DNA of 64,000 nucleotides from an uncultured candidate division Zixibacteria bacterium (GTDB taxonomy: Bacteria > Zixibacteria > MSB-5A5 > UBA10806): positions 544,001 to 608,000 of the forward strand of contig CAWFQL010000012.1 of NCBI GenBank assembly GCA_963817915.1, read 5' to 3'. Position numbers and translations under genes: made by a program. Each line of letters starts with the position of its first letter. The first letter of the stretch is position 1. The notes under the pieces were generated by a model that saw only the letters and a program-made list of their open reading frames with translations, did not search any database and was not told the origin of the DNA. Below, piece after piece: positions 19,423-32,113 of the stretch.

Positions 19423-20538
19423 ATGAAGATAATTCAATCATCGAATATTCACATCGGGAAATGCTTCGAGAAGCAAGGCTTGGCCGGTAATAAGCTTAGG
19501 GCCGCAATCAAGAAGACATTTTCCGCAATTATCGATCTCGCGAGATCGGAATCAGCCGACCTGCTTTTGCTGTCCGGCGACCTTTTCGATTCCAACGATA
19601 TTTCGCAAAATCAGCTCGATTTCTTCATTTCGGAAGTCAAGCGGCTCGAACGAACCAAGGTCGCGCTTTTGCCCGGAACTAAGGATCATTACAAAACCGG
19701 CGGCTTTTGGGAGCAGTGGAATGCGCTCAATCCGGCCGCAAATTTATTGCTTATGACGAATATCGAATCCCCATATATAGAAATCCCTTCGATCTCCACT
19801 ACTCTATACGGAATTCCATGCATGGCAGAGACATCGCCAAGAAATCCATTGAAGAATCTCAAACGTACAGGGAAAAATAGATACCATGTCGCGATGGTAT
19901 ATGGGAATTTGATCGATGACAAAAATCCAGGCGGCAATATTTATCCTTTTACCCCCGATGATCTTATTGCAGGCGGATTCGATTATTATGCCTTGGGCGG
20001 CCAGTTGACTATGAGAGACTGTTCTTCGATCGGAATTCCCGCGGCCTATAGCGGATCGCCTGAAGCAATCTCGCCCGAGCTCGAGGGTGCAGGTAATGTT
20101 CTCATAGTCAAACTTGAAAGAGAAAATGTCACCATAGAGCCCAAAAAAGTTGGCAATATCTCATGGAAAGAAATCGAAATACAGATGAATGATGTCGCCA
20201 GTATTGATGATTTGAAAAGCAAAATCAACAAACTCAATGGCGATGGAGTACTGCTTAAAGTTACATTGAAAGGCCTCGTATTACTTGATGCCAATTTCAA
20301 TATCAAAGAACTTACCAACGAGCTTTCCGATAATTTCCTGAAATTGGAAATTATTGATAAAATGAGTGTTCTTCCCGATGATGTAGTCGAAGTTAAACTC
20401 CATGAGAAAACTATCATGGGTCAGTATCTTAAGATAATGGTCGAAAAAATGAAGACCGCCAAGGGTCCCGCCCGCACCAATCTCGAAGAGTCATTGAAGG
20501 TCGGCTACTCATTGCTTTCAGGAAAGGAGATCTGGTAA
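19423..20538 (+). CDS. Mre11/SbcD-like metallophosphoesterase-fold protein with degenerate metal ligands
   Basis: Overall SbcD/YhaO layout (GDLFD, DYYALG, YSGSPE) but DxH->NIH, GNHD->GTKD, motif IV H->Y and GHxH->GGQL. Confidence 0.8.
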   Translation: MKIIQSSNIHIGKCFEKQGLAGNKLRAAIKKTFSAIIDLARSESADLLLLSGDLFDSNDISQNQLDFFISEVKRLERTKVALLPGTKDHYKTGGFWEQWNALNPAANLLLMTNIESPYIEIPSISTTLYGIPCMAETSPRNPLKNLKRTGKNRYHVAMVYGNLIDDKNPGGNIYPFTPDDLIAGGFDYYALGGQLTMRDCSSIGIPAAYSGSPEAISPELEGAGNVLIVKLERENVTIEPKKVGNISWKEIEIQMNDVASIDDLKSKINKLNGDGVLLKVTLKGLVLLDANFNIKELTNELSDNFLKLEIIDKMSVLPDDVVEVKLHEKTIMGQYLKIMVEKMKTAKGPARTNLEESLKVGYSLLSGKEIW

Positions 20539-20539
20539 A

Positions 20540-22654
20540 ATGCAGATTTCCCAGCTATTCCTGAGAAATTTCGGCAAATTCGAAAATCTTTCAATCGATT
20601 TTACGCCGGGCCTGAATATAATCAAAGGTCCTAACGAAGCGGGTAAATCGACTTTGGCCGAAGCGGTGACTGCCGCCTTTTTCATGAATCCTGAAAAAAA
20701 TAGCGATCAGATAAAAAAGATTGTGAAGTGGCGTTGCGATGACGCTCCATCCCTCATGGCGGTTCTGAACACTGGTACAGACTCATTTAAGCTCATCAAG
20801 GATTTCAGCAAGGGCGTGACAGAATTGGTCGGGGATAAGGCCGCTTCAAAGGAAAAATCCGGCAAGGATGTCGATGATTGGCTTACAAGTCAATTGGGGA
20901 TGTCATCGGAAGAGATTTTTAAAGCAACCGCTTGCATAAATCAAGGGGAAATGAATCAGATAGAGGGGTCGATCGGGGCAATTCAGGGAAAACTCGAATC
21001 GCTCGTGACCGGCGGCAGGGAAGATGAAGCGGGCTCAATGATAATTGAAAAAATCGAGCAAAGAATTCGAGCTATAACCGGCCCGGACGGTGTGTCAGGA
21101 AAAGAGCTTGCGAGGATCAACGAGATCTCAAAAGATATCGATTATAATATCGAAAAGCTATCGCGGGATATCGCCACGCTCAGGACCAGGAGAGCCGATC
21201 TGATTCAGGTGGAAGTTGCTTATAAGAATGTCAAAGAGGACTTGCTGAAAAATAAAGATACTTTTGAAAAAAACAAAAAAGCCACGAAGCTCGAGCAGGA
21301 ATATCAGGCCAGGATCAAGGAATGCACCGATCTGGAAGCAAAGTCCGTAGAAGCCAAGGAATCGATCAAGAAGATAAAAGAATACCGCGATCGGCAGGCT
21401 CAAGCGAAAAAAATAGAATCTAAGGACATCAAGGAATTAGAAACAATTGAGACAAATCTTAATTATCTTCAGCCCAAAAAACGGGAATTAGAAGAGGATG
21501 TCAACGAGGCCACGCTTGATTATCATGCTTACCATATCGGAATAGTTTATTATGCCAGCACTGGAATTGGAATCCTTGGCAGTGTAGCGTCCGCGGTATT
21601 CTATTGGCTTAATGTTTTTAGCGGCATCGCCCCATACAGTCTGGCCTTATCGATCGGACTATTCGTATTGGGTGTCGTTGCTTGTATTTCCAGGAGACAG
21701 CATAGAGCCTATCTCAAAAACAATCTGGAAAAACAAAATCACAAGCTTGGGGAATTGGATTTCGAAATAAACCATCAAAGCGAATTGCTCAAGGATATAC
21801 TCAGAAAATACCTGGTATCATCGACTGACGATCTCAAGCGCAATCTCTGGCAAAATGACGAGCTTGAAAACCAGGTAGCGCGCGAAAAAGAACGTTACGA
21901 CAGCCTGATTCACAATTCCACTTCCGAGGAAATCGATAAAACTTTGGATCAATTAAACCAGCAGATTGCCAATATGGGAATCGAGCGCAAAGACCTTGTG
22001 CAATACGTCGTGGATGAATCAGAGGTAAATCGGCAGCAACTGATAATCGATCAATTTCAGGAGAGAATCAATGACCTCGAGCGAGAACGAGCTGTTCTAC
22101 GTAGCCAGATTGAGACCGCTGAAGGCGGCACGGAACTTTTATCAAGCTATATCGAAAGAAAGGCCGAGCTAAAATCGCGCGCCGAGGATTTATTGCATGA
22201 AGTGGCCATATTAGGGCTAACAGTCCAATGTGTAACCGAAGCCAGGCAGAATGTTTTGGTTTCGACTCTCGAAGTGCTAAATGGCAGAACATCCGAAATT
22301 CTCGGTAGGCTGACGTCGGGAAAATATTCCAAAGTTCGTTTTGACAAATCAAATCTCAAGTTCGAAGTCTATTCGGAAGACAAAAAGGAATGGGTCGACC
22401 CTGAATCCGAGTTGTCGGCTGGCACAGTAGATCAGATTTATCTTGCCGCACGGCTGGCATTGGCCGATCTGATTTCCGAAGACAGATATCCGGTCATGAT
22501 TTTGGATGATCCATTTGTCAATTATGACGGCGAACGGCTGGAAAACGCCATGAAAATAATCAAAGAGATGTCTCAGAATCACCAAATTCTCCTGCTAACC
22601 AGCCAGGATAATTTCGACAAATGGGCTGATTCAACAATAGTTCTTCCCAAATAA
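20540..22654 (+). CDS. Rad50/SbcC-like (YhaN-type) coiled-coil ABC-ATPase with two central TM helices
   Basis: Walker A GPNEAGKST, long coiled coils, two hydrophobic helices near aa 335-385, signature LSAGT, Walker B ILDDPF; expected switch His region reads TSQ. Confidence 0.85.
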   Translation: MQISQLFLRNFGKFENLSIDFTPGLNIIKGPNEAGKSTLAEAVTAAFFMNPEKNSDQIKKIVKWRCDDAPSLMAVLNTGTDSFKLIKDFSKGVTELVGDKAASKEKSGKDVDDWLTSQLGMSSEEIFKATACINQGEMNQIEGSIGAIQGKLESLVTGGREDEAGSMIIEKIEQRIRAITGPDGVSGKELARINEISKDIDYNIEKLSRDIATLRTRRADLIQVEVAYKNVKEDLLKNKDTFEKNKKATKLEQEYQARIKECTDLEAKSVEAKESIKKIKEYRDRQAQAKKIESKDIKELETIETNLNYLQPKKRELEEDVNEATLDYHAYHIGIVYYASTGIGILGSVASAVFYWLNVFSGIAPYSLALSIGLFVLGVVACISRRQHRAYLKNNLEKQNHKLGELDFEINHQSELLKDILRKYLVSSTDDLKRNLWQNDELENQVAREKERYDSLIHNSTSEEIDKTLDQLNQQIANMGIERKDLVQYVVDESEVNRQQLIIDQFQERINDLERERAVLRSQIETAEGGTELLSSYIERKAELKSRAEDLLHEVAILGLTVQCVTEARQNVLVSTLEVLNGRTSEILGRLTSGKYSKVRFDKSNLKFEVYSEDKKEWVDPESELSAGTVDQIYLAARLALADLISEDRYPVMILDDPFVNYDGERLENAMKIIKEMSQNHQILLLTSQDNFDKWADSTIVLPK

Positions 22655-22737
22655 TAGTCATAAATCAATTCCCCCAAAAACCTTTTATAAAAATCTCTTG
22701 ATTTCAATGCTATAACCCTTTTTTATATAATTGCCAT

Positions 22738-23232
22738 ATGGAAAATCTATGGGCGGCCTGGCGCCGCGATTTCATTTTGGGCCCCAAAGAGAATGGATGC
22801 GTATTCTGCAAAAGATTGAAGCAGCATACTGACCGCGACAATCTGATACTTTTCAGGGCTCGTAAAACCTTTGTAATTATGAACCGCTATCCGTACAATG
22901 GCGGCCATCTATTAATCGCGCCCAAAGCCCATAAGGCTGATATACAAAAACTGACCCCATCCGAATCCGCCGAAATGTTCGAGCTTTCTCGAATCGCCAT
23001 TGGCATGCTTAAAAAGATAATGCCGGCCGACGGATTCAATCTGGGAATGAATTTAGGTGAAATCGCCGGGGCAGGCATCGCCGATCATCTTCATGTGCAT
23101 GTAGTGCCTCGTTTCAACGGTGATACCAATTTCATGCCGGTTGTAGGCGATACCAAAGTGCAGTCTTTATCGCTTTACGATATCTACGACATGCTGAAGC
23201 CGAAATTCGATTCCATCAGAGGGAAATTTTGA
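22738..23232 (+). CDS. HIT-family nucleotide hydrolase (Ap4A phosphorylase-like)
   Basis: LWAAWR, CVFC, NRYPYNGGH, intact HLHVH triad, GDTNFMP. Confidence 0.9.
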   Translation: MENLWAAWRRDFILGPKENGCVFCKRLKQHTDRDNLILFRARKTFVIMNRYPYNGGHLLIAPKAHKADIQKLTPSESAEMFELSRIAIGMLKKIMPADGFNLGMNLGEIAGAGIADHLHVHVVPRFNGDTNFMPVVGDTKVQSLSLYDIYDMLKPKFDSIRGKF

Positions 23233-24827
23233 AGATTCCCAAAAAGAAAGAACTGCTTCAACTTCAAAAAAAATACCGCACTGATAAAAAGATCGGCGAG
23301 GTTTATGGCGTACCCGCGAGACTGGTAGCTTATTGGCGTTCGAAGAAGAAAATAGGCCCGTATTCTTTCCCGAAATATTCCGAAGACAAAATTATGGATA
23401 TTTGGGAAAGGTTCGGTGATGATGCCCGCGCCGGAACCGAATTGGGAATCTCCAAGGCCGGATTCAGGCAATGGCGCCGGAAATATGACATCATAGACAA
23501 GCCGATTCAGTTAAGGCTCGAGCAGCTCGAGCTCCCTTTGACCGATATATCAAAAAAGAAAAATTCGCGAAAAGAAACCATTGTCCAGCGAATCCTTGCC
23601 AGGAAGGCAGGATTGAAACGAGCCGACGTCGGCCAATTTATCGAAATCGAGCCAGACCTCGCGATTTCCAACAATAACGCCATCGATGTTATCAATCAGA
23701 TGGCGTCACTTGGCACTGATAGAATATGGGATCCATCAAAGATCGCGATTGTCCTTGATCATAGAACGACCAGCGAATCCAACGGTTCGATTCATAAATA
23801 TAAAACCGCTCGGGAATTTGCCAAAAAGCATCGAATCAGGAATTTCTTCGATCTCGGAGAGGGAATGTGTCATCATCTTGTCCTCGAACAGGGCCTCGTG
23901 CTTCCCGGACATACTATACTGGGGACCGAAACCTACGCGACCACCTATGGCTGTATCGGGGCATTTTCCGCCAAAATCGATGTCTTAGAAATGGCGGCAT
24001 TATGGGCGACAGGCAGGATATGGCTCAGGGTCCCGGAAACCATGAAGATCGTATTAAAGGGACATTTGAACAGGGGAGTATTCGCGAAAGATATTATTCT
24101 GAATCTAATTCGCGATATTCCGGTCAGCGATGTTGATTATAGGGCGATTGAATTCTCCGGCCCCGCCATTCAAGCGATGTCAATGGCTGATCGTTCAATC
24201 TTGACAAGTATGGCCTCCGAAATGAAGGCGAAATCTGCGATCATTTCAATCGATGAGATGGCATCGAGATATATGAAGAAAATTACAAAGATGAAATTCT
24301 GGCCGATAACGCCTGATCCCGATGCCGCCTATAGCCATGAAATCGAATTTGATATTTCCTATCTGACTCCGCAGATCGCCTGCCATGCCGGGGCCAACAA
24401 TACACGTCCTATCGAGGAAATGGTTGGCAAAAAAATTGACCAGGTAATATTGGGCAGTTGTATCAATGGGAAAATCGAGGATCTCGAAATCGCCGCCGGT
24501 ATTTTAAAAGGACGAAAAATCAATCGCGAATTGCGGATGACAATTGTACCGGGTTCGAGAAAGACATACCTCGAGGCTCTCGAAAAGGGGTTGATCAAGA
24601 TATTCGTTGAATCCGGCTGCGCGGTTGCGTATCCCGGACTCGATTCGTATTCGGGAGTCGATGATAGCATCCTATCTTCCGGGGATAAAATAATGACTAC
24701 GACCGGTTATCAAACCGATATCGAAAATGATAACGTTAATTCCGAGATATTTATTGCCTCCCCGGCAACCACGGCAGCCTCGGCGCTCGAAGGTATAATT
24801 GCCGACCCGAGGAAATATATCAAATGA
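23229..24827 (+). CDS. Tandem-HTH fused LeuC/homoaconitase large-subunit homolog, predicted catalytically inactive
   Basis: About 110-aa N-terminal extension with two HTH-like motifs, then full LeuC fold (WATG..W.RVPE, AKDIIL, GSC.NG, ASPATTAASALEG.I.DPR). CxxC, DSHT and NRNF motifs are replaced. Confidence 0.85.
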   Translation: MKIPKKKELLQLQKKYRTDKKIGEVYGVPARLVAYWRSKKKIGPYSFPKYSEDKIMDIWERFGDDARAGTELGISKAGFRQWRRKYDIIDKPIQLRLEQLELPLTDISKKKNSRKETIVQRILARKAGLKRADVGQFIEIEPDLAISNNNAIDVINQMASLGTDRIWDPSKIAIVLDHRTTSESNGSIHKYKTAREFAKKHRIRNFFDLGEGMCHHLVLEQGLVLPGHTILGTETYATTYGCIGAFSAKIDVLEMAALWATGRIWLRVPETMKIVLKGHLNRGVFAKDIILNLIRDIPVSDVDYRAIEFSGPAIQAMSMADRSILTSMASEMKAKSAIISIDEMASRYMKKITKMKFWPITPDPDAAYSHEIEFDISYLTPQIACHAGANNTRPIEEMVGKKIDQVILGSCINGKIEDLEIAAGILKGRKINRELRMTIVPGSRKTYLEALEKGLIKIFVESGCAVAYPGLDSYSGVDDSILSSGDKIMTTTGYQTDIENDNVNSEIFIASPATTAASALEGIIADPRKYIK

Positions 24828-25318
24828 AACGAACGATTGAAGCCACTGCGCAGCGACTGAGCGACAATATCCAATGCAAAACGATCCTTGCCGAAAAATA
24901 TTGGCTGAATAGCTCGATTTCTGAGATTACGCAACATCTCTTTGAGGGCTATGCAGTCAAACATCCGCCTCGAATCGCGGAAGGCGATGTTATTGTAGCC
25001 GGGAATAATTTTGGAAGCGGAGTATTTCACGCCAATACGGTTAACGGACTCAAGGCTTTAAAGGTATCGTGCATAATCGCATCTTCCATTAATCGTATTT
25101 TCTTCCGCAATGCCATAAATATCGGCCTGCCGCTGGTTATCAACAATCAGGCCTATGATAAAATCGAATCCGGCGAATTAATAAAGATTGATTTTGAAAA
25201 GGGAGTAATATCGTGCAAAAAAGGCTCGCTTTTATTTCCACCATATCCGGATTTCATGCTAAGGTTCCTCAGTGCCGGCGGCCTGATTGGATACGCAAAA
25301 AAGAAAATAGGCGCTTAG
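24824..25318 (+). CDS. LeuD/aconitase swivel-domain homolog, degenerate
   Basis: GDVIVAGNNFG and RIFFRNAINIGLP present; DNIDTD->DNIQCK and GCGSSRE->GSGVFHA; ATGA overlap with the upstream gene. Confidence 0.85.
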   Translation: MKRTIEATAQRLSDNIQCKTILAEKYWLNSSISEITQHLFEGYAVKHPPRIAEGDVIVAGNNFGSGVFHANTVNGLKALKVSCIIASSINRIFFRNAINIGLPLVINNQAYDKIESGELIKIDFEKGVISCKKGSLLFPPYPDFMLRFLSAGGLIGYAKKKIGA

Positions 25319-25344
25319 AAAAATAAATTTGATCGAATAATAAC

Positions 25345-25373
25345 AAAAAAGGGCGAAAACATTCGCCCTTTTT
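25345..25373. terminator. Bidirectional intrinsic terminator
   Basis: AAAAAAGGGCGAA-AACA-TTCGCCCTTTTT between convergent genes. Confidence 0.85.
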
Positions 25374-25393
25374 ATTAGAAACCTTTATCGCTT

Positions 25394-26467
25394 CTACTTC
25401 AATAATGTCATCCTCATCGTGTGAACATCCTTACCGTCGGTTATGCGATAGAAATATATTCCCGACGATACGGCATTCCCGCTATTATCGGTACCGTTCC
25501 AGGTAACCGAGTAGGAGCCTTTTTCCAATGAACTATTGACAAGATCCTTTATCAGCGAGCCGGTGATATTATAAACCGCAAGGTTTACATCTCCGCCAGC
25601 TGATTGGAAATTAATCTTGGTTTCAGCATTGAATGGATTCGGATAATTCTGGCTTAATGTAAAGTTGTCGGGCAGGGATGGAATTTCGACTATGCCCGTA
25701 GGCTGCCGAAGATCTGATACCGGTATTTTTGCGCCCTGAACAATGTGCTTGGCACCAGTTCCGGTTTGGTCGGACTGAACAAAGGCAATCAACTCGCAGC
25801 TATCGGCTACAATAGGACTCGGCGTGGTGAAACTGACTGCAAAGGTCGTATCATCGCCGGCATTAAGCGTGATTGCCAGGCCATTGGTGCCGGGAAACAT
25901 ATCTCTGAAGACGCTTTGGTGCCAATCTCTGCCATAAATTCCATTGTAATATATACCGGATTCGGTGAGAGCTATTCTCAATTTTAGGGAAGTATACCCG
26001 GGGGCTTCTTCCGCGACAATTCTAACCGAAACGACTCCCCTTAGGGAATCACGATCGAATGTGCCGGACAGTTGCATGAATAATGGCGAAGGAATCAGGC
26101 TTTCAGTTTCGATTCGTGTTTCATACTGCCCATAACTACTCGGAATGATGTTGCCATCAATCCTCATATAGGGGACATATGGAACGTTGTAATAGTTTTG
26201 AGTGCGAGTACGACAATCTGACATGTTGTAAAGCCAGAACATGTCATTGCCGGGGCTCGGCCACCACACATGGTAATTGATGAGCGCAAGAATATCTGCT
26301 TGCTCAATACGCAACCGATCTAAGACCAGATCGGCGGATGGACAATTGGGTCACGTAGTGCTGGTAAAATTTTCGCCAACCACCATTCTATCGGCGGCGA
26401 CGACGATGCTGCTCATACTAATTAGCGCTATGGCCATTAGCATCACAAATTTTTTCGCAACTGACAT
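25394..26467 (-). CDS. Secreted Omp28-like thioredoxin-fold selenoprotein with C-terminal FlgD/T9SS-like domain (Sec at codon 39)
   Basis: AGGAGG RBS, ATG 26467, signal peptide, then RMVVGENFTSTT-UGA-PNC in frame with the annotated 25394..26314 ORF (YH..WP, YYNVPYVP..RIDG, LIAFVQ, QNYPNPFN). 357 aa. Confidence 0.85.
26314..26353 (-). promoter_or_regulatory. UGA codon plus putative bacterial SECIS hairpin
   Basis: Minus strand UGA CCCAAUUGUCCAUCC GCCGAUCUG-GUCU-UAGAUCGGU: a stem starting about 15 nt after the UGA with a G-containing apical loop. Confidence 0.65.
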
Positions 26468-28951: not shown

Positions 28952-31900
28952 TTAGAATTCGGCCCCGAATGAAAAATACCATTCCGGTCTTGGTGCGAAA
29001 TGTTTCAGATTCGTGGCCCAGGCTACATCAACCCGGAGCACAAAGATGCCTAAATTCGCGCGCGGCCCAAATCCGATACCGCCAAGCATTTCGCCCGGAC
29101 GTCTGACAGTATCCTTTACAGGGTCTCTAAGATGGGCATGAGAGATATTACTGCTACTGTTCGAAGTATCACCCCAGGCCATTCCCATATCCCAGAAGAG
29201 CGCGCCTGATATTTGCCCCAAGGTCATCGGCAATGGAAATTGCATTTTAAAATAATCAATGAATGGATAGCGGAATTCGAAATTCGTGATCCAATATCTC
29301 GTTCCAGAGTCAGAAAAGTATTTGTATCCTCTGAGCGGAACAACTAACTCATTCAGGTAAATATCCTTCACATTGAATATATCGCCTTGAGATCGTTTGG
29401 GGCCTATCCAGTTCGCTGTTCCCCCCATATAATACCTCTTGGCATCGGGACCTCCTGAAGCCGCGGCGCCAAACCTGAAGGCGAAATTATAGCGTGTCCA
29501 AAAATGCCAGTAATTGCGGTAATCGGCCTCAACAGCATGATATGAAAGGTCTGAACTGACCACCTTTATAGATTGTTCAAGCGCAATTTTATATCGATGT
29601 CCGGATACAGGTCCCACTATTCCCCAGATGACGGAATCATTGATATATTCCAGATTTGCATTTAGTATGTTTTTCGTCTCATTGTCCTTGCCATTATAAT
29701 CAAAATTATCTCTGGCAATTGTGGTTTGCGAAAGAGTGAAATCCAGACGCGTAAATTTCGAGAATGGATATGACACATATCCCTGAGCTCCGTAAACGCG
29801 GTCCGAGAAATAAAAGTTATTGTAATCGTCGTAATATAGATTTTTAAAGTGGAACACACCGAAAGCCAGATTCGGCCTGTGAGCGGTATATGAGTACGCC
29901 AGTTGAAAATTCGATTGGTCTATCGTATTGACTAAATCGGTGTACAAGAAGAAGTGATGATTGCCAAACATATCCGAAACCGAGAGATAGGACTGTCCCC
30001 GCAAACCGTAGAAATTGTCATAAGTAAATCCGCCGGATACCAATTCGGGCGCGAATTTTAATTTGTAAGGGTGTTCAATATAACTGCCGTCCGCTTTTTG
30101 GTATTTAAGTGTATCCAAAACGGCATGTAAGGAATCAATCTCAATATTCTGGGAAGTGGTCGTATCTGCAGGAGTTTCGCTTTGCTTTGAGACAATTTCG
30201 CTTTCGCCCGCGTGAAATACATAGGTGCTGAAATCGAGGTTTGCTTTTTTGGTTGTATCCGGTTTGACAGTAACCGTATCCGATACCGCCACGACTTTGG
30301 GTACAAAGAAATTTTTATCGCCGCTTCTCAGCTTTTTCATGAAGGAAGTCAAAGACAATTCACTTTTGTCATCGCCGACATTTTTGATATTTTTAAGCGC
30401 GTAAATATCGAATCCCAATTTAAAGAATCCTGAGTATGCAATTTGATCGCCGTCGGGTGACCAGGTCGGGGTGAACGCTCCGGAAATAAGATTTGTTACA
30501 GGGAATGTCTTCTTGGTGGCGATTTCATAGATATAAATATTATCAATGCCATTGCGGTTAGATATGAAGGCAATCCTCTGGCCGTCCGGAGAGAATGCCG
30601 GCTGATCATCTTTATATGGTGATTCAATCAGGGGCGAAATCGTGTCAGCCTCGGAGTCGCAGAGGAATATGTTGTAATCGCCATATTTAAATGTCGAATC
30701 CGGTATTCCGTTGAAGGGCCTATCCGACGCGAACGCCAAAAAGCGGCTGTCCTTATCCCATGAGGGATTGGTGTCATCGTATAGGTCGTTCATCAGCTTG
30801 TCTAATTTGCCGGTGTCCAGATGATAAACATATATATCGGCAAAACCATGATCTATTCCTTCGAACGCTATCTTCTTACCATCGGGAGACCATGATGGAT
30901 TTCTCATTTCGCCTAATTTAAGATCGATTTTTTTCTTTCGCTTGCCATTATCAGCGTTATAGATAAGAAGCATGTCTCTTCCGTGGCTCTTTCCTACAAA
31001 TGCCAGTTCCGTACCATCAGGTGACCAGGTAAGCCCCGAGACATACGAATGCAATGATTCGAGATCGCCAGATCGTTCGGCTTTTATCAGATGCGATATG
31101 ATTTTACCATCTACAGTGGAAATAATGAAAACATCGTTATATCTGTCGGAGTAGCCATTTTGCGGATTAGCACGATCGGAGAAGAACGCGAGTCGGTCGC
31201 CCTTTGGTGACCAGACCGGTTTCTGATTGTATAATGAGCCGTCCTTGACATGATTTGTCAATGCTTTGGAAATTTCCTCGGGCTCTTTTCTTTCGGCAAT
31301 TTCGGGCCAGTAAACACGCCTTAAGTCCTTCTGCCAGTCATCTGAAAGGTCCTGAATCGAGACTCCCAGCGCGGCTTTCACTGCCCGTTCCATGGTCTTA
31401 TGATATTTGCCCTTATTCAATATTTCGGCTATTTTTTCTTCACCGTATTTTTCGGAAATATATTCCAAAGCGGATTGGCCACCTTTATACGCGAGAAAAC
31501 CGTCGAGAAAATCGAGCGGAGGCATATAGCCTGCTGTAATAGCATCTCGCGCGTACATGTCGGCTTCGAGTTCCCATCCGTGTCTTGAAGAAAATTCGGC
31601 GTAACCCTCGGAAAACCATAATGGCGGCTGGAATAGCGCCTCCGCCGATAGGATCGAACGCAGGGTATTGCCATAAAGTAAATTGAACCAAACCGCATGG
31701 GTTAATTCATGATGAAGCACATGGCGAAATTCTTCATATGAACCTGTGAATGGAATGGTCATCCTATTTTTGAACGCTTCGGTAACGCCGCCGACACCTT
31801 CCGGTATAATATCCGAAATAACATTGGTTTGTTCGAATTCACCGTGAGACGCGTATAGAATTACCGGGACCCGTTCGGTAAGATTGTAGTTGAGCTGTTC

Positions 31901-32113
31901 TTTGATCTCATTGTAGGCAACTTCAAGTGTTTTAGCCGCGAATGTTGCCAGGGTGTCTTCGCCTTTATAAAAGTAGACATCGAAATGTGGTGTCTGGATA
32001 TAGTACCAGTCAAAATTTCGATACTGGACCTTATTTTGGCCGAATGTGGGTTCTTGCGCCGATGCTGTTACCGCCGCCATGATTGTCATTACGTATACAA
32101 ATATTTTTCTCAT
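28952..32113 (-). CDS. Gluzincin (peptidase MA-like) + PD40/TolB beta-propeller + Omp85/BamA-type barrel protein
   Basis: FGQNKVQY, HELTH...WFSEGYAE, repeated WSPDG, LRGY (VRGY-like) motif and terminal FSFGAEF. Confidence 0.85.
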   Translation of the reverse strand: MRKIFVYVMTIMAAVTASAQEPTFGQNKVQYRNFDWYYIQTPHFDVYFYKGEDTLATFAAKTLEVAYNEIKEQLNYNLTERVPVILYASHGEFEQTNVISDIIPEGVGGVTEAFKNRMTIPFTGSYEEFRHVLHHELTHAVWFNLLYGNTLRSILSAEALFQPPLWFSEGYAEFSSRHGWELEADMYARDAITAGYMPPLDFLDGFLAYKGGQSALEYISEKYGEEKIAEILNKGKYHKTMERAVKAALGVSIQDLSDDWQKDLRRVYWPEIAERKEPEEISKALTNHVKDGSLYNQKPVWSPKGDRLAFFSDRANPQNGYSDRYNDVFIISTVDGKIISHLIKAERSGDLESLHSYVSGLTWSPDGTELAFVGKSHGRDMLLIYNADNGKRKKKIDLKLGEMRNPSWSPDGKKIAFEGIDHGFADIYVYHLDTGKLDKLMNDLYDDTNPSWDKDSRFLAFASDRPFNGIPDSTFKYGDYNIFLCDSEADTISPLIESPYKDDQPAFSPDGQRIAFISNRNGIDNIYIYEIATKKTFPVTNLISGAFTPTWSPDGDQIAYSGFFKLGFDIYALKNIKNVGDDKSELSLTSFMKKLRSGDKNFFVPKVVAVSDTVTVKPDTTKKANLDFSTYVFHAGESEIVSKQSETPADTTTSQNIEIDSLHAVLDTLKYQKADGSYIEHPYKLKFAPELVSGGFTYDNFYGLRGQSYLSVSDMFGNHHFFLYTDLVNTIDQSNFQLAYSYTAHRPNLAFGVFHFKNLYYDDYNNFYFSDRVYGAQGYVSYPFSKFTRLDFTLSQTTIARDNFDYNGKDNETKNILNANLEYINDSVIWGIVGPVSGHRYKIALEQSIKVVSSDLSYHAVEADYRNYWHFWTRYNFAFRFGAAASGGPDAKRYYMGGTANWIGPKRSQGDIFNVKDIYLNELVVPLRGYKYFSDSGTRYWITNFEFRYPFIDYFKMQFPLPMTLGQISGALFWDMGMAWGDTSNSSSNISHAHLRDPVKDTVRRPGEMLGGIGFGPRANLGIFVLRVDVAWATNLKHFAPRPEWYFSFGAEF

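Follow-up and report, generated by a model that had tools for sequence, protein, structure and literature searches.

A Zixibacteria-wide fusion of a tandem helix-turn-helix head to an aconitase-family subunit with an often degenerate active site

Pseudoenzymes and trigger enzymes are known ideas; IRP2, a member of the aconitase superfamily, is non-catalytic, and BirA and NadR are trigger enzymes with a fused DNA-binding domain. A trigger enzyme is defined as a single protein with both catalytic and gene-regulatory activity; PutA is an example, and aconitase is described as an RNA-binding trigger enzyme (PMC3715855). Here, we analyse a stretch of 64,000 nucleotides (the window; positions 544,001 to 608,000 of contig CAWFQL010000012.1, assembly GCA_963817915.1) from an uncultured candidate division Zixibacteria bacterium. 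It carries a unit of three genes, in which a HIT-family gene is followed by a LeuC/HacA-type large subunit with an N-terminal tandem helix-turn-helix (HTH) head and by a LeuD-type small subunit. The fusion gene shows an enzyme converted to another job, probably regulation. A literature search, which did not extend to subscription journals, brought up no account of a LeuC-type protein that is fused to an HTH or is non-catalytic.

The M. jannaschii proteins MJ0499 and MJ1003 with their partners (4kp1, 4nqy, 4kp2, 3vba and 2pkp) have the same fold, the same subunit split and adjacent genes for the large and small subunits. Compared with these enzymes, the window pair is without two of the three cluster cysteines, the Asp-Ser-His motif, the arginines of NRNFxGR and the Ser-Arg of LeuD; the 105-residue tandem-HTH head is present in the window pair and in none of the M. 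jannaschii enzymes. Unlike isopropylmalate (IPM) isomerase or homoaconitase of the archaeal M. jannaschii type, the unit has its linkage with the HIT gene, rather than with genes of the leucine or lysine pathways. IRP1 and IRP2, CitB of B. subtilis and AcnA and AcnB of E. coli are likewise aconitase-superfamily proteins with a nucleic-acid-linked regulatory role, which is putative in the window. The IRP and CitB types are long four-domain single chains (~850–900 residues) with RNA bound in the opened cleft, whereas the window body is of the short LeuC type (~415 residues), its small subunit is a separate protein and the part that would bind nucleic acid is the appended HTH head; the large subunit matches IRP1 and IRP2 over ~130 residues only (E = 5e-07 to 8e-06). 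Trigger enzymes of the PutA type hold a metabolic enzyme and a DNA-binding module in one chain, a layout that the intact HTH–LeuC members appear to share. The enzyme class (iron–sulphur (Fe-S) hydro-lyase) and the head (tandem HTH_23-like) differ from PutA, and most HTH–LeuC members have lost the catalytic site. The N-termini of mariner/Tc1 transposases and the bipartite paired and POU domains likewise have two tethered three-helix modules, but the window head is without a transposase or other known effector, and the structural scores behind its rows for Mos1, SETMAR, DUX4 and POU are weak (Foldseek E ≥ 0.17; VIA-align Z ≤ 6.1).

To our knowledge, it is rare for an orthologous single-copy gene to survive both in an intact bifunctional form and in many forms that have decayed independently. 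The family offers ~265 natural variants, which are fully intact, retain the cysteines only or are fully dead, with or without the small subunit, and lets one ask which parts of an Fe-S enzyme fold remain needed after the loss of catalysis and how a metabolic enzyme turns into a regulator. The current annotation, '3-isopropylmalate dehydratase large subunit', would mislead the reconstruction of leucine biosynthesis in Zixibacteria.

The fusion gene and its replaced active site

The three genes of the unit lie on the same strand (+) and code for the HIT-family protein (22738–23232), a large subunit of 532 residues (23229–24827) and a small subunit of 164 residues (24824–25318). The large subunit starts with TTG, overlapping the HIT stop codon as TTGA at 23229–32, and its TGA overlaps the ATG of the small subunit as ATGA at 24824–27. 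A preliminary description of this DNA, made from its letters, had reported full-length, ATGA-coupled frames of LeuC/LeuD type, and the coordinates, the overlap and the Pfam and NCBIfam matches agree with it. At the position of the TTG in the window, the orthologues start with ATG (59 of 81), GTG (14) or TTG (8), and the whole N-terminal extension can be aligned across them. The extension is therefore real, as the orthologues both start at the same position and align over its entire length. It consists of the head (residues 1–105; 23229–23543, +) and a flexible linker (approximately residues 106–116; 23544–23576, +), which has a low predicted local distance difference test (pLDDT) score and varies in length and sequence among orthologues. 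The remainder (residues 117–532; 23577–24827, +) is the degenerate LeuC/HacA-type body.

The large subunit matches Pfam Aconitase (PF00330) over residues 178–522 (E = 5.8e-63; 213.9 bits against a cut-off of 28.7) and aligns residue by residue with the M. jannaschii IPM isomerase/homoaconitase (4nqy/4kp1; E = 3e-83). It passes NCBIfam PRK00402 (NF001614) narrowly (409.8 bits against 385), passes hacA_fam over residues 117–528 and fails every NCBIfam equivalog; the LeuC equivalogs TIGR02083 (363.5 against 610.65 bits) and TIGR00170 (161.3 against 560.25 bits) are not reached. The small subunit passes LEUD_arch (TIGR02087; 123 bits against 108.95) and Aconitase_C (PF00694; 28.7 bits against 22.8), and matches M. 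jannaschii 3vba with E = 1.6e-28. All motif replacements that had been listed for the two subunits are seen in the alignments to 4nqy/4kp1 and 3vba. In the large subunit, MVHD is changed to ISNN and GADSHT to GTETYA, so that the catalytic Asp-Ser-His is now Glu-Thr-Tyr; the Cys-x-x-Cys loop is changed to GLDSY, with L and Y at the cysteine positions, and SNRNFRGR to TGYQTDIE, with G-Y...E at the Asn-Arg...Arg columns and the substrate arginines gone. Two of the three cluster cysteines are lost and the sole one left is that of GSC(I)NG, while the Asp-His pair of LDHR is retained. In the small subunit, VDTD of the substrate-recognition loop is changed to IQCK and GCGSSRE to GSGVFHA (GSSRE to GVFHA), with loss of the Ser-Arg. 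As read from these residues, the window pair cannot be a classical Fe-S hydro-lyase.

Retention of the enzyme fold, as first proposed, is borne out by the full-length model of the large subunit (pLDDT 86, predicted template modelling (TM) score 0.74, 72 sequences), which superimposes on 4kp1 with a TM score of 0.92 and a root-mean-square deviation (rmsd) of 2.4 Å over 422 columns. The pLDDT falls below 50 at residues 97–111, in the linker. The low-confidence loops of the modelled body (180–184, 475–481 and 496–502) are all former active-site loops. The body has an approximately neutral net charge and is predicted to be a well-folded aconitase scaffold.

At E ≤ 0.001, the protein search gave 986 proteins. 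The top 120 clusters (all 523–555 residues) show 44–59% identity at 99–100% query coverage, and the named members among them are Zixibacteria proteins annotated as isopropylmalate dehydratase or homoaconitase. A scan with one genome per species found a relative in 156 genomes, from which 80 loci were kept. With the head alone as the query, 265 of 285 Zixibacteria genomes match, as do 194 of the 198 of high quality (at least 90% completeness, at most 5% contamination), and the head is present in 126 of 130 genera. Nearly all genomes have a single match to the head, always in a long frame, mostly of ~480–630 residues unless cut by the end of a contig. The family is thus a Zixibacteria-wide single-copy gene, ancestrally intact, and not the private novelty of one genome.

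Nine key positions (the three Cys, Asp-Ser-His and Asn-Arg...Arg) were scored in 75 rows, that is, 74 loci and the window; excluded were L011, L024, L037, L039 and L051, in which the gene runs off the contig, and L081. The frame of L081 (5986–6756) is truncated to 252 residues and ends within the body. All nine residues are kept in 20 rows. The remaining 55, the window copy among them, have degenerate sites, whose residues differ by lineage and even between close relatives. A tree was calculated with IQ-TREE (LG+G4, short search), with support from the Shimodaira–Hasegawa-like approximate likelihood-ratio test (SH-aLRT) only, and rooted on the two plain paralogues of the window genome. The HTH family is monophyletic with respect to these paralogues (98% SH-aLRT) and forms an open polytomy of four groups, namely two intact rows, an intact group of 18 rows (99%), a degenerate group of 17 rows that includes the window (100%) and a degenerate group of 38 rows (100%). 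The intact rows have short branches. Decay in the window's clade is graded: eight rows (L007, L009, L014, L008, L006, L013, L010 and L019) have all three cysteines and the window has one. The window copy is among the most decayed of its clade. Since there is a single copy of the gene and its context does not change, the dead forms must be orthologues that lost their sites where they stand, and not spare duplicates. The alignment and the tree show that the ancestral fusion had a complete Fe-S hydro-lyase active site, which survives in slow-evolving lineages that always keep LeuD. Orthologues with CxxC, DSH and SSRE, which had been named in advance as a point against a dead regulator, do exist, but they belong to separate slow-evolving lineages and give no sign of recent decay.

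The tandem-HTH head

AlphaFold2 (AF2; 81 sequences) predicts the head as two three-helix bundles with a pLDDT of ~90 over residues 1–90. The helices of module 1 span residues 6–16, 19–26 and 30–39, and those of module 2 residues 52–62, 65–72 and 76–85. The net charge of the head is +11. Over the first ~105 residues, the mean column identity in the 81 sequences is 70%, with 23 invariant columns; the identity of the whole protein (35–59%) is well below this value. The basic positions R37, K39, K40 and R83 of the recognition helices are invariant. In a comparison with 48,161 chains, VIA-align superimposes module 1 (residues 1–43) on a phage immunity repressor:DNA complex (Z 6.1, rmsd 2.1 Å, 43 residues) and, with Z 4.8–5.3, on Reb1, GcrA, FapR, TyrR, NtrC, Fis, resolvase, Mos1 and SETMAR. 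Among the weak top rows of Foldseek are double homeodomains (DUX4), POU domains and heads of the mariner type.

A profile of the 81 heads was searched against 1.84 billion representatives and matched 363 proteins at E ≤ 0.001. The matches outside the family include proteins with 3–8 tandem copies of the unit and a 136-residue protein with two modules. Homology to the multi-HTH proteins spans E = 1e-38 to 1e-7, and the multi-repeat and two-module relatives pass the cut-offs of HTH_23, HTH_28 or HTH_50; P0151 (HTH_23, 97 bits) is matched with E = 1e-35 and P0160 (HTH_50, 47 bits; HTH_23, 36 bits) with E = 7e-25. Sub-threshold matches of HTH_23, HTH_28 and HTH_Tnp_1 fall on both repeats of the head, and in the orthologue P0116 the head reaches 23.7 bits for HTH_23 against the cut-off of 24.6. 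From its homology to repeat proteins that pass HTH_23, which is the strongest support, and from the fold, we conclude that the head is an HTH_23-type tandem HTH. The two HTH-like repeats noticed at the outset in the N-terminal extension are borne out by both the AF2 fold and the profile matches. ESM Atlas provides HTH_23-type clusters as leads only, with scores of 0.82–0.83, under the 0.9 level. PF28406, annotated on 3 of the 120 homologues, might be a recent family that covers the head.

The multi-HTH relatives P0144, P0151, P0152, P0154, P0158, P0162, P0167, P0222 and P0254 are uncharacterised proteins of 3–8 tandem HTH units; seven of eight clusters are nameless and one is a 'hypothetical protein'. 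In P0162 (773 residues), which resembles archaeal TFB, the HTH array follows a TFIIB zinc ribbon and TFIIB repeats in the same chain.

Selection and competing explanations

Ratios of nonsynonymous to synonymous substitution (dN/dS) were calculated by the Nei–Gojobori method on close pairs. They are below 1, as had been anticipated, at 0.02–0.15 for the bodies of degenerate orthologues (12 pairs with finite estimates; the window copy itself is saturated), 0.00–0.06 for degenerate heads and 0.03–0.09 for intact bodies. The catalytic columns are 100% conserved in the intact rows and 13–60% conserved in the two degenerate clades, in which mean conservation is 64% and 61% for the body and 83% and 91% for the head. 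These data show that the degenerate body is retained as a scaffold under purifying selection. The ex-active-site columns lie at or below the body average, and a derived residue is fixed at none of them in either degenerate clade. The old active site has been released from constraint and not rebuilt, which speaks against the idea that a pocket for new catalysis or for ligand sensing has formed here and makes the ligand sensing proposed earlier unlikely at this site.

We are fairly confident that the window protein is a non-catalytic pseudoenzyme under selection that carries an HTH head. In the fuller explanation, the window genes are the local copy of a probable transcription unit found across Zixibacteria, with a HIT gene of the Ap4A phosphorylase type, then the tandem-HTH/LeuC-HacA fusion and then, in some lineages, the LeuD-type subunit. 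In two large clades, one of them that of the window, the cluster ligands, catalytic residues and substrate arginines were freed from constraint and drifted differently in each lineage, with the head kept near-invariant and the body kept as a folded aconitase scaffold under purifying selection. The conserved, selected function would lie in the basic tandem-HTH head, which would bind nucleic acid (DNA in all likelihood) through two tethered modules, much as paired, POU or mariner heads do, and the body would be a structural or regulatory module. Intact members would act as trigger enzymes, and degenerate ones, that of the window among them, would serve as dedicated non-catalytic regulators. We lean, with some reserve, towards this explanation as a whole; for the narrower proposal that the window protein is a DNA-binding regulator, we judge the chances to be about even.

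Several observations weigh against the DNA-binding regulator. Foldseek found no match to the head at E ≤ 0.001 (best E ≥ 0.17), and VIA-align Z values of 4–6, in hits that barely cover module 2, may reflect no more than a shared helical arrangement. The Pfam scores of the window head are sub-threshold, at 15.3 against 24.6 bits for HTH_23 on module 1 and 14.3 against 25 bits for HTH_28 on module 2, and DNA binding by the head is something we infer. With respect to its nearest relative, L007, the window copy is saturated in dS and has no dN/dS of its own. Cluster binding may persist in the window's clade, because several of its members keep all three cysteines. The k-mer and footprint searches upstream of HIT found no operator. 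Phylum-wide conservation of the head this extreme is unusual for an operator-specific repressor and could point to another partner.

The last two points count in favour of the main rival. In this view, the head does not bind DNA as a transcription factor but would dock on a different, very conserved partner (the HIT enzyme or some other protein, RNA polymerase or RNA), and the fusion would be a core factor specific to the phylum or a subunit that regulates an enzyme. The head is conserved at the housekeeping level quoted above in 81 species, the gene is near-universal and single-copy in the phylum, and its coupling to an active-looking HIT enzyme is tight, with the HIT stop overlapping the fusion start by 4 nt in 46 of 78 loci. 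The structural neighbours and sequence relatives of the head, however, are all DNA-binding HTH classes, and the invariant R37, K39, K40 and R83 belong to recognition helices; we consider docking on such a partner unlikely, although it deserves to be taken seriously.

Far less probable is that the pair is still an enzyme, with cluster-free or altered chemistry on the aconitase fold. The full-length frames under purifying selection would fit this proposal, as would the translational coupling that LeuD* (the degenerate LeuD) still has in the window and the site elements partly kept among degenerate copies (the His/Gln of CHQ, the Asp of GTD and the G..GR motif). Opposed to it are the absence of any fixed replacement at ex-active-site columns, the differences in replacements between close relatives, the position of the ex-site loops as the lowest-confidence parts of the modelled body and the loss of the site-completing small subunit from most degenerate lineages. 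LeuD lies downstream on the same strand in 19 of the 20 intact loci, the single miss having 370 nt of contig left, and in five intact loci an extra gene is inserted between the large subunit and LeuD. In the window's clade, 7 of 17 rows have LeuD; nine are without it although the contig leaves 1.7 kb or more for it, and the remaining row gives no verdict. None of the 38 rows of the other degenerate clade has LeuD.

LeuD* of the window (24824–25318, +) agrees with the consensus of the intact forms at 20 of 52 positions in its N-terminal (substrate/catalytic) half and at 34 of 55 in its C-terminal structural half. The dN/dS values of degenerate LeuD pairs are 0.21, 0.24 and 0.32, the last near saturation, as compared to 0.02–0.13 for intact LeuD; degenerate LeuD evolves 3–5 times more freely. 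The suggestion that LeuD* is an obligate partner of the large subunit is weakened by this relaxation and by its loss from most degenerate relatives. It looks like a relaxed, eroding remnant that may still dock on the body, and LeuD does not look essential for the function of the family.

Recent inactivation with neutral decay, to which the terminal branch of the window (0.53, the longest of its clade) and the relaxed LeuD* with its eroding N-terminal half would be suited, is hardly credible and is already contradicted for the large subunit, given open full-length frames in 55 species, the dN/dS values of the degenerate bodies (0.02–0.15) and LeuD* (0.21–0.32), an invariant head and decay that is clade-wide and old.

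The HIT gene, flanking sequences and other aconitase-family genes

The first gene of the unit (22738–23232, +) codes for a HIT-family protein of 164 residues (Pfam HIT, E = 3e-12) that resembles Rv2613c and Ap4A phosphorylase. In all 80 loci that could be tested, a HIT open reading frame (ORF) precedes the fusion gene on the same strand, an obligate linkage in line with the expectation that this neighbour would be conserved; it abuts the fusion gene in 79 of 81 loci, lies 330 nt upstream in one, and one locus is too near the contig edge. HxHxHxx is kept in all 78 HIT orthologues. The family profile matches 6af2 (E = 3e-42) and the Ap4A phosphorylase Rv2613c (3ano; E = 1e-41) over profile positions 2–159, near full length. 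The gene misses the NCBIfam equivalog (130.9 against 290). Prediction of a complex between HTH–LeuC* and the HIT protein gave a score of 0.00 without controls and is evidence neither way.

Upstream of HIT, tentative promoter-like boxes (TTGATT, 22698–22703; TATAAT, 22726–22731; +) occupy a position that is conserved in the window's clade. The TATAAT ends 6 nt before the HIT ATG, and since the spacer is 22 nt, the boxes were not called by the sigma-70 scan of 22600–25500, which gave 7 sites against 6.0 expected. Both degenerate clades have a -10-like box (TATAAT, GTATATT or TATCTTA) that ends ~6–9 nt before the HIT start, and no Shine–Dalgarno sequence; for this reason, a leaderless or very short-leader HIT mRNA is suggested in these clades, including the window. 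In the intact clade of 18 rows, the HIT leader is ~30–40 nt with AGGAG, and the start is often TTG. Among 76 upstream regions, CTTGATTT occurs in 19 and TGTATATT in 18, as compared to a shuffled maximum with a mean of 11.3 and a top of 16, and the enriched k-mers are promoter-like boxes only. In the window genome, CTTGATTT has 304 occurrences against ~148 expected and does not favour ORF starts; the extended box is found a single time. A further conserved box (…CAA…GATAG) lies ~55–80 nt upstream of HIT in L031, L066, L076, L040, L072, L046, L054, L056, L032 and L062. It is confined to one subclade of the degenerate clade of 38 rows, and the window's clade is without it. The box could be a protein-binding site; a covarying hairpin was rejected, as RNAalifold gave 0 pairs for the 10 sequences. 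Downstream, a terminator-like palindromic hairpin of 12 pairs (25346–25373), with an A-run before and a T-run after it, lies between LeuD* and a convergent gene; terminator-like sites in the region are no more numerous than in shuffles.

In the seven loci compared, the neighbourhood beyond HIT varies between clades, and neither leuA nor leuB was found near the unit. The neighbourhood in the window's family consists of a TRAM-methyltransferase followed by SbcD-like and SbcC-like genes. In the window (19423–22654, +), the SbcD-like gene (Metallophos) and the SbcC-like gene (AAA_23/AAA_27, SbcC_Walker_B) immediately precede HIT, in an order also seen in L007 and L008. In one intact family, recR lies upstream together with dnaX and ybaB, and aroA lies downstream. 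The unit therefore has DNA-metabolism genes as neighbours in two settings that are unrelated to each other, perhaps by chance.

Besides the dead pair, the window genome has two intact aconitase-family pairs. The preliminary description had asked for a check on separate intact leuCD genes; the intact pairs are there, but they pass no equivalog and are not demonstrably leuCD. Intact members of the HTH family likewise pass subfamily models only (PRK00402, 579–592 bits) and no LeuC, HacA or aconitase equivalog, remaining below the LeuC cut-off (491–513 against 610.65). LeuA_dimer (PF08502) was found in none of 11 genomes (five with intact forms, five with degenerate forms and that of the window at 93.9% completeness), whereas the control genomes all matched. 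'LeuC/LeuD' is a family label only in this text, because no equivalog is passed and LeuA_dimer is missing from these 11 genomes. Decay that tracks the loss of leucine biosynthesis was rejected, as genomes with intact and degenerate forms are alike in this respect. Frames with PF00330 of at least 662 residues in one long stretch, as in the long single-chain aconitase types, occur in five of five genomes with degenerate forms and in none of five with intact forms; the ten genomes represent few independent lineages, and the window's genome has no such frame. The complete chromosome G007, from which L055 derives, codes for an AcnA-like protein of 893 residues, an AcnB-like protein of 865 residues and the dead HTH copy; a search with PF00330 found no other short LeuC-type gene in it.

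A more speculative proposal, which we regard as doubtful, is that HIT/HTH–LeuC is a nucleic-acid-linked core module that defines the phylum. The ancestral Fe-S hydro-lyase, possibly the short-type aconitase of the cell itself, would have read metabolite or Fe-S status directly at DNA through its tandem-HTH head, alongside a co-translated HIT enzyme of the Ap4A phosphorylase type, and in most lineages the body would have become a pure scaffold once another aconitase took over. If true, the members of the family would form a graded series in nature, with bifunctional trigger enzymes at one end and dedicated pseudoenzyme regulators at the other.

One paralogue pair of the window genome, L002, lies between a gene of the Iso_dh family and mdh. 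Its intact large subunit (L002:742–2355, −; contig C6) has a C-terminal tail of ~120 residues with a Lys/Ala/Ser-rich, histone-H1-like end and is the second aconitase-family protein with a basic appendage in this genome. The other pair, L001, adjoins a putative CoA-transferase-like gene. The small subunit of this pair (L001:959–1387, −; contig C16; 142 residues) is without the N-terminal region of the substrate-recognition loop and matches no NCBIfam model at E ≤ 1e-30. Among the genes downstream of the unit in the window (25394–26314, −, and 28952–32113, −) is one for an Omp28/FlgD-Ig protein that carries a C-terminal sorting domain of type IX secretion, which is consistent with an organism of the FCB group.

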